Below are positions 4,533 through 39,285 of a DNA stretch of 64,000 nucleotides, piece after piece (within the stretch, counting starts at the first letter, position 1; every line of letters begins with the position of its first letter). This DNA comes from Escherichia coli. GTDB taxonomy: Bacteria > Pseudomonadota > Gammaproteobacteria > Enterobacterales > Enterobacteriaceae. A program made the position numbers and the translations under genes. The stretch is taken from the NCBI RefSeq assembly GCF_022846255.1, contig NZ_AP025682.1, one strand, 5' to 3'. A model generated the notes under the pieces. The model did no database searches, had not been told where the DNA came from, and saw only the letters and a program-made list of their open reading frames with translations.

Positions 4533-5042
4533 ATGTCTTCCCGCAATAATCCGGCGCGTGTCGCCATCGTGATGGGGTCCAAAAGCGACTGGGCTACCAT
4601 GCAGTTCGCCGCCGAAATCTTCGAAATCCTGAATGTCCCGCACCACGTTGAAGTGGTTTCTGCTCACCGCACCCCCGATAAACTGTTCAGCTTCGCCGAA
4701 AGCGCCGAAGAGAACGGTTATCAGGTGATTATTGCGGGCGCAGGCGGCGCAGCGCACCTGCCTGGCATGATTGCCGCCAAAACGCTGGTGCCGGTGCTGG
4801 GCGTGCCAGTACAGAGCGCCGCACTGAGCGGTGTCGATAGCCTCTACTCCATCGTACAAATGCCGCGCGGCATTCCGGTGGGTACGCTGGCGATTGGTAA
4901 AGCTGGCGCGGCAAACGCGGCGTTACTGGCAGCACAAATTCTTGCGACTCATGATAAAGAACTGCACCAGCGTCTGAATGAATGGCGCAAAGCACAAACT
5001 GATGAAGTGCTGGAAAACCCGGACCCGCGAGGTGCGGCATGA
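4533..5042 (+). CDS. purE: N5-carboxyaminoimidazole ribonucleotide mutase PurE
   Basis: [20 protein letters not shown]...; ATG at 4533 (the ORF-track start at 4506 is an upstream extension). Confidence 0.93.
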
Positions 5043-6106
5043 AACAGGTTTGCGTCCTCGGTAACGGGCAGTTAGGCCGTATGCTGCGTCAGGCAGGCGA
5101 ACCGTTAGGCATTGCTGTCTGGCCAGTCGGGCTGGACGCTGAACCGGCGGCGGTGCCTTTTCAACAAAGCGTGATTACCGCTGAGATAGAACGCTGGCCG
5201 GAAACCGCATTAACCCGCGAGCTGGCGCGCCATCCGGCCTTTGTGAACCGCGATGTGTTCCCGATTATTGCTGACCGTCTGACTCAGAAGCAGCTTTTCG
5301 ATAAGCTCCACCTGCCGACCGCACCGTGGCAGTTACTTTCCGAACACAGCGAGTGGCCTGCGGTGTTTGATCGTTTAGGTGAGCTGGCGATTGTTAAACG
5401 TCGCACTGGTGGCTATGACGGACGCGGTCAATGGCGTTTACGCGCCGATGAAACCGAACAGTTACCGGCTGAATGCTACGGCGAATGTATTGTCGAGCAG
5501 GGCATAAACTTCTCAGGTGAAGTGTCGCTGGTTGGCGCGCGCGGCTTTGATGGCAGCACCGTGTTTTATCCGCTGACGCATAACCTGCATCAGAACGGCA
5601 TTTTGCGCACCAGCGTCGCTTTCCCGCAGGCCAATGCACAGCAACAGGCGCAAGCTGAAGAGATGTTGTCGGCGATTATGCAGGAGCTGAGCTATGTGGG
5701 CGTGATGGCGATGGAGTGTTTTGTCACCCCACAAGGTCTGCTGATCAACGAACTGGCTCCGCGTGTGCATAACAGCGGTCACTGGACGCAAAACGGTGCC
5801 AGCATCAGCCAGTTTGAGCTACATCTGCGGGCAATTACCGATCTGCCGTTACCGCAACCAGTAGTGAATAATCCGTCGGTGATGATCAATCTGATTGGTA
5901 GCGATCTGAATTATGACTGGCTGAAACTGCCGCTTGTGCATCTGCACTGGTACGACAAAGAAGTCCGTCCGGGCCGTAAAGTGGGGCATTTGAATTTGAC
6001 CGACAGCGACACATCGCGTCTGACCGCGACGCTGGAAGCCTTAATCCCACTGCTGCCGCCGGAGTATGCCAGCGGCGTGATGTGGGCGCAGAGCAAGTTC
6101 AGTTAA
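5039..6106 (+). CDS. purK: N5-carboxyaminoimidazole ribonucleotide synthase PurK
   Basis: 355 aa ATP-grasp protein; start overlaps the purE stop (ATGA). Confidence 0.95.
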
Positions 6107-36329: not shown

Positions 36330-36692
36330 TTACTCTTCCCGGCCTTTACCCATACTTTTTTGGTCTTCATCCGGATAGTGTTTTTTTAGATATTCCAGGA
36401 CGTTTTTATTGACCTTGTGTTGGGTATACACCCACCCTTTCCAGTAATCAGGTTGGTCCAGGTAAACTTCTGGCGGAATGGTGAAATCAGAAAGCGTTAA
36501 CCATTCGGCTAACAGATCGGGGTTTCGTTTCTGGATCAACTGCAACAGCATGATCAGCGACATGGCAGAGGCAGGAGCCGTACTATCGCCGCTTAAATAC
36601 TTCCACACTGTCGACCGGTTCGAACGAAAAAGGATCGGTAGCAATGCCCGGTCCAGATTCATTTCATTAAAAATCTTCTCAAATTCATTCAT
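36330..36692 (-). CDS. Hypothetical 120-aa protein, possible Cro/C1-like HTH; not recognised as a K-12 gene
   Basis: Clean ORF with caggaaa RBS 7 nt upstream of the ATG; the segment RSTVWKYLSGDSTAPASAMSLIMLLQL resembles an XRE-type recognition helix; divergent from the adhesin gene. Confidence 0.55.
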   Translation of the reverse strand: MNEFEKIFNEMNLDRALLPILFRSNRSTVWKYLSGDSTAPASAMSLIMLLQLIQKRNPDLLAEWLTLSDFTIPPEVYLDQPDYWKGWVYTQHKVNKNVLEYLKKHYPDEDQKSMGKGREE

Positions 36693-37057
36693 TTAAATTT
36701 CCTGCCTGGCGTAAACCTCTTAAAAATTGAGATTTATCAAAGAAACGCATTTTAGCACACATCAGGAACCGCTTCACGTTTAGTCCAGAAACAGAATTTA
36801 TTTCGCTTATCAAAACAAGTCTTTACTCTTTTTTACATTGAAAGAGCACGAAATAATTTCCTTTTTTATTTATATAAGAAACTATTTTTGTTTCTTATTG
36901 GTGGTGTTTACGCTTACACAATACAAAAATGCGCTTTACATCACACAAATGGCGGCGTAGATTTCGATCAAATTGCAACGCAGTTTATTTCTTAAAACAA
37001 TATTATTTGTTTCTTATAGAAACATTAATGCGACTTATTTTGAACAAGAGAAAATGA

Positions 37058-38074
37058 ATGAAAACTGTAAACGTAGCTTTACTGGCACTCATAATTTCAG
37101 CAACATCCAGCCCTGTTGTTTTAGCTGGTGATACCATTGAAGCGGCGGCAACAGAGCTTTCAGCCATTAACTCCGGCATGTCGCAATCGGAGATTGAGCA
37201 GAAGATTACCCGCTTTTTAGAACGCACAGACAACAGCCCCGCTGCGTATACCTATTTGACTGAACATCACTACATCCCTTCTGAAACACCTGATACCACT
37301 CAGACTCCCACTGTCCAGACAGATCCTGACGCAGGACAAAAAACCGTTGCCGCTACAGGTGATGTACAGACAACCGCCCGTTATCAGAGCATGATCAACG
37401 CCCGACAGTCTGCGGTAACTGACGCCCAGCAAACGCAAATTACAGAGCAACAGGCGCAGATCGTAGCCACACAAAAAACGCTCGCCGCGACTGGAGATAC
37501 GCAAAATACCGCGCATTATCAGGAGATGATTAATGCCAGGCTGGCGGCTCAAAATGAGGCTAATCAGCGCACTACCACGGAACAAGGGCAGAAAATGAAT
37601 GCACTGACAACCGATGTGGCAGCACAACAGCAAAAAGAAAGGGCTCAATACGATAAACAAATGCAAAGTCTGGCGCAGAAGTCTGTCCAGGCACATGAAC
37701 AAATTGACAGCCTGTCACAAGACGTAACCCAAACGCATCAGCAGTTAAGCAACACGCAAAAACGAGTAGCGGATAATAGCCAACAGATTACTACGCTCAA
37801 TAACCATTTCAGTTCGCTGAAAAACGAAGTTGAGGACAACCGTAAAGAAGCCAATGCGGGAACTGCATCAGCCATCGCTATCGCCTCACAACCACAGGTG
37901 AAAACCGGTGACGTGATGATGGTGTCAGCGGGAGCGGGAACGTTCAACGGTGAATCTGCGGTGTCTGTAGGAACATCTTTTAATGCCGGAACGCATACGG
38001 TACTTAAAGCAGGTATTTCTGCGGATACACAATCTGATTTCGGTGCGGGTGTCGGCGTGGGATATTCGTTCTAA
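37058..38074 (+). CDS. Short head-less trimeric autotransporter adhesin (type Vc, YadA-like C-terminal anchor)
   Basis: Signal peptide MKTVNVALLALIISATSSPVVLA|GD; Q/T-rich coiled-coil stalk with a 45-aa tandem repeat; C-terminus ...SAVSVGTSFNAGTHTVLKAGISADTQSDFGAGVGVGYSF fits the 4-strand YadA anchor ending in an aromatic residue. Confidence 0.75.
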   Translation: MKTVNVALLALIISATSSPVVLAGDTIEAAATELSAINSGMSQSEIEQKITRFLERTDNSPAAYTYLTEHHYIPSETPDTTQTPTVQTDPDAGQKTVAATGDVQTTARYQSMINARQSAVTDAQQTQITEQQAQIVATQKTLAATGDTQNTAHYQEMINARLAAQNEANQRTTTEQGQKMNALTTDVAAQQQKERAQYDKQMQSLAQKSVQAHEQIDSLSQDVTQTHQQLSNTQKRVADNSQQITTLNNHFSSLKNEVEDNRKEANAGTASAIAIASQPQVKTGDVMMVSAGAGTFNGESAVSVGTSFNAGTHTVLKAGISADTQSDFGAGVGVGYSF

Positions 38075-38127
38075 TTTTAACAGCAATTTCTTATTCGCAA
38101 TTTTCCGCACATTATTTAAGGTTAACA

Positions 38128-38550
38128 ATGATGAATAGCTCCATTAAATCGTTTTCCCTGCTGGCGGTTATATTACTGGCTGGCTGTAGCTCACCCGCTT
38201 CCCGCATCGCAGATTGCCAGGCGCAGGGCGTCAGTCATGACACCTGTTACCTCGCAGAACAGCAGCGTCAGTCGGCTATTTTAAGTGCATCCGAAGCGCA
38301 GGCATTTAAAAATGCAGATGCCGCACAACATGCCCAGGCGGCAAAGAAAGCCATTTATAAAGGATTTGGCATGACCTTTAGAATGAGCAGTAAAAACTTT
38401 GCTTATCTCAATGATTCATTATGTGCAATTGATGAAGACAATAAAGATGCCACTGTTTATCAGTCAGGTCTGTATAACGTCATTGTTTATCACCATACGG
38501 GAAAAGTCGCCTTAATGAAGGAAGGTCAGTTTGTGGGTTATTTAAAATGA
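38128..38550 (+). CDS. Hypothetical lipoprotein (lipobox LLAGC, +2 Ser)
   Basis: MMNSSIKSFSLLAVILLAG|C signal/lipobox; aagg RBS; lies 53 nt downstream of the adhesin gene on the same strand. Confidence 0.65.
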   Translation: MMNSSIKSFSLLAVILLAGCSSPASRIADCQAQGVSHDTCYLAEQQRQSAILSASEAQAFKNADAAQHAQAAKKAIYKGFGMTFRMSSKNFAYLNDSLCAIDEDNKDATVYQSGLYNVIVYHHTGKVALMKEGQFVGYLK

Positions 38551-38750
38551 AGGAGCAAAGGAAAATCCCCCTGACGCATATTATGATTATCGGTGCGTTT
38601 ATTTTTGCCTTCTTGCAAGTGGTGTTATTAGCCTCCCTGGTTCACGCTGTGAATGTTAACAACGAAATCCAGGAAGGCTTATTTCAGTCGGGGCGCATTA
38701 TGGTAGAAAGTTTGCAGCATATTCTTTCGGTGCAAACGGAGATTAACTGA
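38547..38750 (+). CDS. Hypothetical 67-aa single-pass membrane protein
   Basis: Start overlaps the lipoprotein stop (ATGA); one hydrophobic helix IMIIGAFIFAFLQVVLLASLV; stop lies 3 nt from the cueR stop. Confidence 0.5.
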   Translation: MKEQRKIPLTHIMIIGAFIFAFLQVVLLASLVHAVNVNNEIQEGLFQSGRIMVESLQHILSVQTEIN

Positions 38751-38753
38751 TTT

Positions 38754-39161
38754 TCACCCCGCCCGATGATGACAGCAGCCGGAGAGATTTTCGATAATCG
38801 GGCAGTCGGCGCTGTCATCGCCAGGGCAGGCATTCGCCAGCGCCAGTAGCTGGTTGCGCATGGATTGCAGTTCTTCGATATGCCGTTCGATCTCCGCCAC
38901 CTTCTCCAGCGTACGACGTTTGACGTCGGCACTATGACGCTGCGGATCGTTAAACAGATTCACCAGTTCGCCGCTCTCCTCCAGGTTAAAGCCCACCTGG
39001 CGTGCCTGGCGCAGTAAGGTCAGTTCGTTGAGATGCTGCTGCGTGTAGGTGCGATAACCGTTTTCGCTGCGCATCGGCGGCGTCACCAGCCCCTTCTCTT
39101 CATAGAAGCGAATGGCTTTGCTGGTCAGGCCGGTAATTTTTGCTACATCGCTAATGTTCAT
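38754..39161 (-). CDS. cueR: MerR-family Cu(I)-responsive regulator CueR
   Basis: 135 aa with N-terminal MerR HTH and C-terminal metal-binding Cys residues. Confidence 0.95.
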
Positions 39162-39285
39162 CGTTCGCGCAACGCCTCCTGTGCTTTGTTAAAGGGTTTC
39201 AACAAATATTCAAGCACGTTTTTTTGCCAGTGCGAATATCGACCGCCACCACAATAATACAGGAAGTACTGCGCACAGAGAGATG

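Follow-up and report, generated by a model that had tools for sequence, protein, structure and literature searches.

Only two families of helper proteins have been described for trimeric autotransporter adhesins (TAAs), namely SadB and TpgA. The sadB gene is located upstream of sadA. SadB is an inner-membrane lipoprotein, and TpgA of Acinetobacter sp. Tol 5, which is encoded downstream of ataA in one operon, uses a BamE-like N-domain to form an A3B3 complex at the periplasmic side of the adhesin anchor and an OmpA_C domain to bind peptidoglycan; 91% of the genes of TpgA cluster I lie downstream of a taa gene (PMC12523085). A global survey presented in a 2026 preprint screened the neighbours of TAA genes for further helpers and found none. 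Since that survey required a YadA head domain, short headless TAAs would have been missed. The present analysis concerns one such TAA in a 64,000-nucleotide segment of the Escherichia coli chromosome (contig NZ_AP025682.1; hereafter the window) and, above all, the lipoprotein gene directly downstream of it, which is named z0638 in enterohaemorrhagic E. coli (EHEC) O157:H7 EDL933 and overlaps a gene for a membrane protein of 67 amino acids (aa). We propose, at a probability of roughly 0.4, that this lipoprotein is a third type of periplasmic partner of TAAs, that is, a TAA-linked accessory protein. The linkage between such a lipoprotein and headless TAAs is genuine and escaped the published surveys, while the genomic island itself and the downstream position of a helper gene were known already. 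The first-pass annotation of this DNA had noted that this position does not match the layout of SadB and SadA; the layout as such is not new, as tpgA stands downstream of the AtaA gene in one operon (PMC12523085).

A lipoprotein family linked to YadA-type anchors

The 140-aa lipoprotein is encoded at 38128-38550 on the plus strand, from an ATGATG start at 38128 to the TGA at 38548-38550, and its sequence places it in a small family without a name, whose members come mainly from Enterobacterales. When 1.84 billion representatives were searched exhaustively with a profile, only 147 relatives were retrieved, nearly all of those with a known source organism coming from Enterobacterales, and no family was found for it in Pfam, NCBIfam, PHROG or PADLOC. 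Its genomic surroundings were studied in a sample made up of contigs encoding distant lipoprotein homologues together with one species-representative genome scan (48 loci), each locus being scored with hidden Markov models (HMMs) of the anchor, the z0640-like protein, the small protein and the lipoprotein. Distinct lineages with a full-length lipoprotein numbered 37; linkage was counted from the lipoprotein side, and from the anchor side in E. coli only.

A YadA-anchor gene lies directly upstream on the same strand in 23 of the 37 lineages, and an anchor open reading frame (ORF) lies 1.9 kb upstream in one more (Pantoea). Of the 19 adjacent pairs that were measured, 18 have a gap of 47-330 nucleotides (nt) between adhesin and lipoprotein genes; in Pseudocitrobacter faecalis (L006), two anchor-bearing adhesin genes are found upstream, the nearer ending 468 nt before the lipoprotein. 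The linked lineages include Escherichia, Pseudocitrobacter, Enterobacter, Lelliottia, Hafnia, Rahnella, Ewingella, Yersinia and Phytobacter, genera which we take to fall in three families of Enterobacterales under the NCBI taxonomy, and they occupy most of the deep branches of the tree (Escherichia/Pseudocitrobacter, Enterobacter asburiae, Lelliottia, Rahnella/Ewingella/Yersinia aleksiciae and Hafnia/Phytobacter). The module is located between ybbJ and cueR in Escherichia, between fetA and qmcA in L009, and between a major facilitator superfamily (MFS) transporter gene and a Lum_binding-domain gene in Hafnia, and it adjoins a serine recombinase in P. faecalis. Given that the flanking genes differ between linked lineages, the adhesin-lipoprotein pair moves as a unit. 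What the linked adhesins have in common is limited to their final coiled-coil segment and the anchor ('...SLK.EVD.N+KEANAG...PQV...'); the N-terminal parts are unrelated, as are the lengths (290-730 aa), which makes the anchor, and not the passenger, the constant partner of the lipoprotein. A homologue search with the adhesin anchor as the query returned 15 fragments.

Within E. coli, the pair of lipoprotein and small ORF is present in 1416 of 5426 complete genomes (about 26%), with at least 80% of its length intact in 1411 of the 1416 carriers, and the adhesin anchor is present in 1414 of the same 5426. Anchor and pair are each almost always single-copy per genome (median 1, maximum 2 places), and the near-identity of the two counts indicates that the island is inherited all-or-none in this species.

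The N-terminus of the lipoprotein (MMNSSIKSFSLLAVILLAGC, continued by SSP) consists of a signal peptide of residues 1-19 with the lipobox L-A-G-C, the lipidation site Cys20 (38185-38187) and Ser at position +2. When a lipobox was defined as a signal peptide ending in [LVI][ASTVI][GAS]C, with Asp at +2 as the Lol-avoidance signal, one was recognised in 36 of the 37 lineages, a single ORF lacking a recognisable one, and the +2 residue was S, T or Q in all 36 and Asp in none. Under the Lol rule, lipoproteins without Asp at +2 are sorted to the outer membrane. For the whole family, an outer-membrane, periplasm-facing location is therefore predicted, as the first-pass annotation had proposed for z0638 from its Ser alone.

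In the AlphaFold 2 (AF2) model, the N-module (residues 23-73) forms a Cys30/Cys40 helical hairpin and a long helix at a predicted local distance difference test score (pLDDT) of 54-67, and the C-module (residues 75-140; 38350-38547) an eight-stranded antiparallel beta-barrel at a pLDDT of about 90. The family alignment places the motif 'SRMA-C-xAQG(V/I)SxDTC-YLAEQNRQ' after the lipobox and before the long helix, with Cys30 conserved in at least 90% of the sequences and Cys40 invariant. The protein is under purifying selection within Escherichia (E. coli, E. marmotae, E. whittamii and another lineage), where its ratio of nonsynonymous to synonymous substitution rates (dN/dS) is 0.06-0.10. A profile search of the PDB with the family alignment yielded nothing at E ≤ 10 save a chance match to PspA (E 1.3), and 35 C-module relatives gave no Pfam match to OmpA. 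C-modules also occur behind other N-terminal anchors; single relatives are fused to TolA_C or DUF4156, and several members carry His-rich linkers such as 'HHHHHHH' (P0144, P0142, P0125, P0126, P0189).

Several identities were considered for the lipoprotein and set aside. The NCBIfam match to TraV scores 16-21 bits against a curated cut-off of 44.75 and covers only the signal peptide, the lipobox and the region of the Cys pair. Those to TrbK, Cor and the 'XAC1346 secretion chaperone', on which no literature was found, are likewise below threshold and consist mostly of signal peptide and lipobox. A relation to MliC/PliC lysozyme inhibitors was rejected at an hhalign probability of 8.6% and for want of a Pfam MliC match. 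A spanin or phage origin found no tblastn match to the lipoprotein in 50,697 phage records and none in PHROG; matches in plasmids are rare.

Island OI-29 and its four genes

The window reads fetB-fetA, qmcA-ybbJ, insert, cueR-ybaT-glsA-copA, and the insert between ybbJ and cueR, at about 36.25-38.75 kb, holds four ORFs. It is O-island 29 (OI-29) of EHEC O157:H7 EDL933, with z0640, z0639 ("GmrA"), z0638 and an ORF that is unannotated in EDL933; an O157:H7 genome carries the four genes in identical order at about 97% DNA identity to the window. Further carriers are neonatal meningitis (NMEC), uropathogenic (UPEC), other extraintestinal pathogenic (ExPEC), avian pathogenic (APEC) and enteropathogenic (EPEC) E. 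coli strains, and the genes of the island are reported to be jointly down-regulated upon contact with HeLa cells (PMC5826968). The deletion primers of that study map to three of the ORFs in the window (PMC5826968). The arms of the gmrA (z0639) deletion end exactly at 37057 and 38075, which identifies GmrA as the ORF with the YadA anchor, and the primers for z0638 (38551-38588) and z0640 (36692-36729) identify these genes as the lipoprotein ORF and the 120-aa ORF, respectively. As the z0638 deletion arm starts at 38551, the ATG of the 67-aa ORF at 38547 was removed as well, and the published z0638 mutant is, judging from these coordinates, probably a double knock-out of the lipoprotein and the 67-aa ORF. 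In the published account, z0638 is a hypothetical protein without a role in motility, and the 67-aa ORF is neither annotated nor mentioned (PMC5826968).

z0639 (37058-38074, plus strand, TAA stop at 38072-38074) encodes a short headless trimeric autotransporter of 338 aa. A Sec signal peptide at its N-terminus (MKTVNVALLALIISATSSPVVLA) is followed by a Gln/Ala-rich coiled-coil stalk and, at residues 279-338, by the Pfam YadA_anchor domain (PF03895; 2.6e-11), for which the sequence matches in the PDB are the anchors of AtaA and Hia (1e-6). It thus has the anchor and the export signal of a trimeric autotransporter, and no YadA-like head; in Pfam it matched neither a head nor a stalk domain, and its remaining matches were coiled-coil noise of the SMC-like kind. 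The Prokaryotic Genome Annotation Pipeline (PGAP) names it "YadA family autotransporter adhesin". The gene has been published as a transcription activator, GmrA, a cytoplasmic DNA-binding protein that activates fliA (PMC5826968), whereas its sequence is that of an outer-membrane autotransporter. None of the searchable papers was found to call z0639 an autotransporter or to note a conflict with the role ascribed to GmrA. Its "DNA-related" database matches are limited to coiled-coil noise (SMC, DndD).

Among Escherichia loci (the window against L012-L016 and L018), the adhesin varies in length between 338 and 487 aa through changes in the N-terminal part and stalk, while the lipoprotein remains at 140 aa and the small protein at 67-68 aa. 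Over its last 120 residues (37712-38071), the adhesin is 35-44% identical to the C-termini of annotated tail, adhesin or receptor-binding proteins of many Enterobacterales phages, and the stalk end with the anchor matches PHROG 17426 at 1.8e-21. In Rahnella and Ewingella, and more weakly in Yersinia aleksiciae (L024 3734-3870; also L026, L027, L037 and L028), the adhesin carries at its N-terminus an additional in-frame stretch of about 40 residues that is conserved among them. The sequence of this stretch, 'RNTQIIAAYIAGNTNK.ELA.YFGVS.STIRRVL', resembles a helix-turn-helix (HTH) and immediately precedes the hydrophobic core of the signal peptide; its Pfam matches to several HTH families are weak (E 0.13-0.6).

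The divergent 120-aa gene z0640 (36330-36692, minus strand) encodes a probable XRE-type HTH regulator. Its AF2 model (pLDDT 84) shows an HTH domain and a helical C-terminal part, and the N-terminal 64 residues superpose on the HTH of HigA2, Aca2, P2 C and MqsA (Foldseek probability 0.99, TM-score 0.68); the Pfam match to MqsA is weak (E 0.12), and z0640 was otherwise without a family in Pfam, NCBIfam, PHROG and PADLOC. HMM matches place a z0640-like gene divergently upstream of the adhesin in most linked lineages, and this probable regulator is conserved with the module. z0640 is a more plausible DNA-binding protein of OI-29 than GmrA. The z0640 mutant has normal motility (PMC5826968).

The fourth gene (38547-38750, plus strand) encodes a single-pass membrane protein of 67 aa that PGAP annotates as a coding sequence in other E. 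coli genomes (WP_000664215/WP_000664214); the pair appears as two coding sequences in 29 of the 30 rows listed. A basic N-terminus (K2, R5, K6) precedes one hydrophobic span at about residues 12-35 (38580-38651) and an acidic tail of about 32 residues, from which, following the positive-inside rule, an N-in/C-out topology is predicted, with the membrane span leading into a periplasmic helix of about 32 residues. Pfam, NCBIfam, PHROG and PADLOC gave no match. Within Escherichia, dN/dS is 0.20-0.28. The protein is 42% identical to that of L009/L017 (Pseudocitrobacter-like) and 34% to that of P. faecalis L006, with synonymous sites near saturation in the comparisons of the window with L009 and L006 (dN/dS for the former was computed on a protein-guided codon alignment). 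Across this divergence, the reading frame, a length of 64-68 aa, the overlap with the lipoprotein gene, the hydrophobic span and a C-terminal 'FQS...Q..L' helix have all been kept. Purifying selection, the persistence of the ATGA overlap at 34-42% identity and the PGAP annotation establish that the lipoprotein ORF and the 67-aa ORF are real genes. Among the loci scored with HMMs, the small protein is found only in the Escherichia/Pseudocitrobacter clade.

The junctions of the three plus-strand genes are exactly as the first-pass annotation had described them, and its observation is confirmed in every detail. The lipoprotein ATG at 38128 follows the adhesin stop on the same strand after 53 nt, and an ATGA at 38547-38550 joins the lipoprotein TGA (38548-38550) to the ATG of the small ORF (38547-38549). 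The spacer (38075-38127) contains a putative ribosome-binding site, AAGG at 38118-38121, 6 nt before the lipoprotein ATG. In six Escherichia sequences its last 25 nt or so, including this site, are almost fully conserved (1-2 differences each), and the rest carries indels (53-112 nt); O157 has 84 nt where the window has 53. A scan of the spacer gave no sigma-70-like promoter site. An intrinsic terminator between the adhesin and lipoprotein genes was considered and rejected: the sole hairpin flagged, at 38045-38069 in the 3' end of the adhesin gene, is a single consensus match with 3 G-C pairs, and the fold stability of the junction (z = -0.67) is not better than that of shuffled sequence. O157 and other strains carry a hairpin insert in the spacer, without a T-run, that is absent from the window. 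Co-transcription of the adhesin, lipoprotein and small ORF is, on these features, plausible. Lineages with gaps of 160-330 nt and the stand-alone clade of lipoproteins must use promoters of their own. The ATGA overlap recurs in the other Escherichia lineages examined (three named species and one further lineage), in L009/L010/L017 and in P. faecalis L006, and suggests translational coupling, with which the lack of a clear Shine-Dalgarno sequence for the small ORF is consistent.

Beyond the module, the small ORF ends 3 nt before the stop of the convergent cueR (38750-38754), and no terminator-like site separates the two genes, so that their transcripts may overlap. The stretch between cueR and ybaT (39162-39285 in the window; L001 5867-8509; L002 5942-6039) differs among Escherichia: O157:H7, E. 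marmotae and others have genes there for a type I secretion system and for a giant Big_13/BapA-like protein, strain GN02100 retains a pseudogene remnant, and in the window ybaT follows cueR directly. The module recurs around qmcA-ybbJ-cueR-copA in differing arrangements (L033 4297-7620; L009 4138-8684), so that this neighbourhood may be ancestral and not a recent insertion.

Candidate roles of the lipoprotein

The mechanism that we favour starts from a module of a divergent XRE-like regulator, a short headless trimeric autotransporter, a lipoprotein and a small inner-membrane protein. After export by the Sec pathway, the lipoprotein would receive its lipids at Cys20 and be delivered by the Lol system to the outer membrane, where it would sit in the inner leaflet and a disulfide-stapled helical stalk would hold its eight-stranded barrel domain within the periplasm. 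There it would dock from the periplasmic side beneath the trimeric YadA-type anchor of the adhesin whose gene precedes its own and, comparably to TpgA with AtaA and SadB with SadA, though with an unrelated fold, stabilise this adhesin or help to insert it. In Escherichia and Pseudocitrobacter, the coupled 67-aa protein may act as a stoichiometric inner-membrane partner whose short periplasmic helix contacts the lipoprotein. Of all this, the structure of the genes, the selection on them, the class of fold, the sorting signal and the linkage in the genome are established by the analysis; the location in the cell, co-transcription and all contacts and effects of the proteins are inferred. Slightly more tentative is the narrower proposal that lipoproteins of the z0638 type, in Escherichia together with the coupled 67-aa protein, constitute a third, structurally unrelated class of dedicated TAA partners, specific to the short headless TAAs of Enterobacterales and binding the periplasmic face of their anchor; the small protein might then tie the complex towards the inner membrane. 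It would follow as a corollary that GmrA is an outer-membrane protein whose flagellar effect is indirect, and that z0640 is the real DNA-binding protein of the island.

A number of observations weigh against a role as TAA partner. No adhesin gene lies within 5 kb of the lipoprotein in 13 of the 37 lineages, and these stand-alone lipoproteins mostly form one clade (Klebsiella grimontii, Raoultella, Pluralibacter, Erwinia, Pantoea, Atlantibacter and a plasmid-like contig). In Citrobacter (L057-L063, about 4970-5607), the N-module and C-module are two adjacent genes with signal peptides of their own and no nearby adhesin, and highly conserved mini-lipoproteins of 63-90 aa, consisting of a free N-module, are found in Buttiauxella, Atlantibacter, Aeromonas and Pseudomonas (L041, L045-L047, L049-L052, L054-L056, about 5000-5210). 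Serratia silvae (L033) has the z0640-like regulator and the lipoprotein before qmcA without an adhesin. The periplasmic tail of the small protein, at 32 residues, is short for reaching a lipoprotein in the outer membrane. Deletion of the whole of OI-29 left adherence to HeLa and Caco-2 cells unchanged, and deletion of z0638 had no motility phenotype (PMC5826968).

The interpretation given in the first-pass annotation, which saw in the downstream genes a pair of partners of the adhesin, is accordingly partly supported. Co-conservation of the genes stands in the 23 linked lineages and in the matching E. coli counts, and fails in the 13 without an adhesin. The lipoprotein family is not strictly dedicated to adhesins, given these 13 lineages, the split in Citrobacter and the free N-modules. 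The small membrane protein, which had been seen as one half of a possible partner pair, is a lineage-specific addition of Escherichia and Pseudocitrobacter outside the conserved core, and the supposed three-gene unit is a module of four, with the divergent XRE-type HTH gene conserved alongside.

The same distribution lends weight to another explanation, that of an independent periplasmic envelope lipoprotein with a barrel of the MliC/PliC type, serving ligand binding or inhibition, or stress protection, and merely co-inherited with the adhesin in one small mobile or ancestral cassette. The whole stand-alone clade has contexts of its own, for instance between eco and a permease gene in Klebsiella and Raoultella, and the split and free modules, varied N-terminal anchors, TolA_C and DUF4156 fusions and His-rich linkers agree with this explanation, as does the absence of an adhesion phenotype upon OI-29 deletion (PMC5826968). 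However, most deep branches of the family still have a YadA-anchor gene next to the lipoprotein gene, even where identity has fallen to about 35-45% and the chromosomal sites are unrelated, a state that is hard to keep without selection for linkage, and no relation to MliC is detectable at the sequence level, either by hhalign or in Pfam. We consider an independent role the main rival, though less likely on balance than that of a TAA partner; if it were correct, z0638 would be a conserved, ordinary envelope lipoprotein.

An architecture of outer-membrane lipoprotein and inner-membrane protein would also fit a signalling pair, in which the lipoprotein senses adhesin assembly or the state of the envelope and passes this through the small protein to the island regulator or to flagellar control, in the manner of RcsF/IgaA. 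The conserved divergent HTH regulator within the module and the reported influence of OI-29 on fliA and flagellar expression (PMC5826968) are in line with such a circuit. We nevertheless rate it as improbable, since the small protein exposes only about 11 residues to the cytoplasm and is missing from most of the lineages that keep regulator, adhesin and lipoprotein, and since deletion of z0638, which also removed the 67-aa ATG, left motility and the fliC and motA transcripts unchanged (PMC5826968). The same pairing of membranes recalls the logic of o- and i-spanins, and a remnant of a mobile element, either a spanin-like lysis pair or an entry or phage-exclusion lipoprotein unrelated to the adhesin, could be suspected from the weak NCBIfam matches of the N-module to TraV, TrbK and Cor (E 4e-4 to 0.03, all below cut-off), from the serine recombinase next to the P. 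faecalis copy and from the phage tail proteins related to the adhesin anchor. Against this stand the phage records, in which the lipoprotein is unmatched, the rarity of plasmid matches and the lack of PHROG or PADLOC matches; no holin or endolysin is nearby, the neighbours being chromosomal housekeeping genes, the sizes of the two proteins are the reverse of those of spanins, and the TraV, TrbK and Cor scores lie far under the curated cut-offs and stem mostly from signal peptide and lipobox. A mobile-element remnant is thus very improbable. Should the lipoprotein prove to be a partner of the YadA-type anchor, as we favour, it would represent a third solution for inserting or bracing TAA trimers in the envelope, and, the locus being carried by about a quarter of complete E. 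coli genomes, it would bear on how OI-29 works.

Relation to lysozyme inhibitors, SadB and TpgA

The small barrel invites comparison with the MliC/PliC/ACP inhibitors. To these, z0638 shows no sequence or profile similarity; their conserved inhibitor loops were not identified in it, and MliC is without the helical N-module that z0638 possesses. With SadB, z0638 has in common that a small enterobacterial lipoprotein and a trimeric autotransporter share an operon, in the case of z0638 a plausible one, and SadB is needed for efficient display of its adhesin. The two nevertheless differ in that SadB resides in the inner membrane and its gene lies upstream, whereas z0638 lies downstream of the adhesin gene and its Ser at +2 predicts the outer membrane. 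As no match to the sequence or fold of SadB was found either, the earlier view that the lipoprotein is not a SadB is upheld.

TpgA, which is not described as a lipoprotein in PMC12523085, has an N-domain of the SmpA/OmlA BamE-like alpha-alpha-beta-beta-beta type and, in about 80% of its members, a C-terminal peptidoglycan-binding OmpA_C domain, and it is without a small inner-membrane partner. In contrast, z0638 is modelled by AF2 as a Cys-pair helical stalk with an eight-stranded barrel and has no Pfam match to SmpA_OmlA or OmpA. As far as sequence and modelled fold can tell, z0638 belongs to neither the SadB nor the TpgA family. Despite these differences, TpgA is a precedent in arrangement: both genes lie directly downstream of a trimeric-autotransporter gene on the same strand; both proteins are periplasmic, z0638 by prediction, and associated with the conserved anchor and not with the passenger, in the case of z0638 by gene linkage; and in both the linkage to taa genes is strong but not absolute, at 91% for TpgA cluster I and in 23 of 37 lineages for the family described here.

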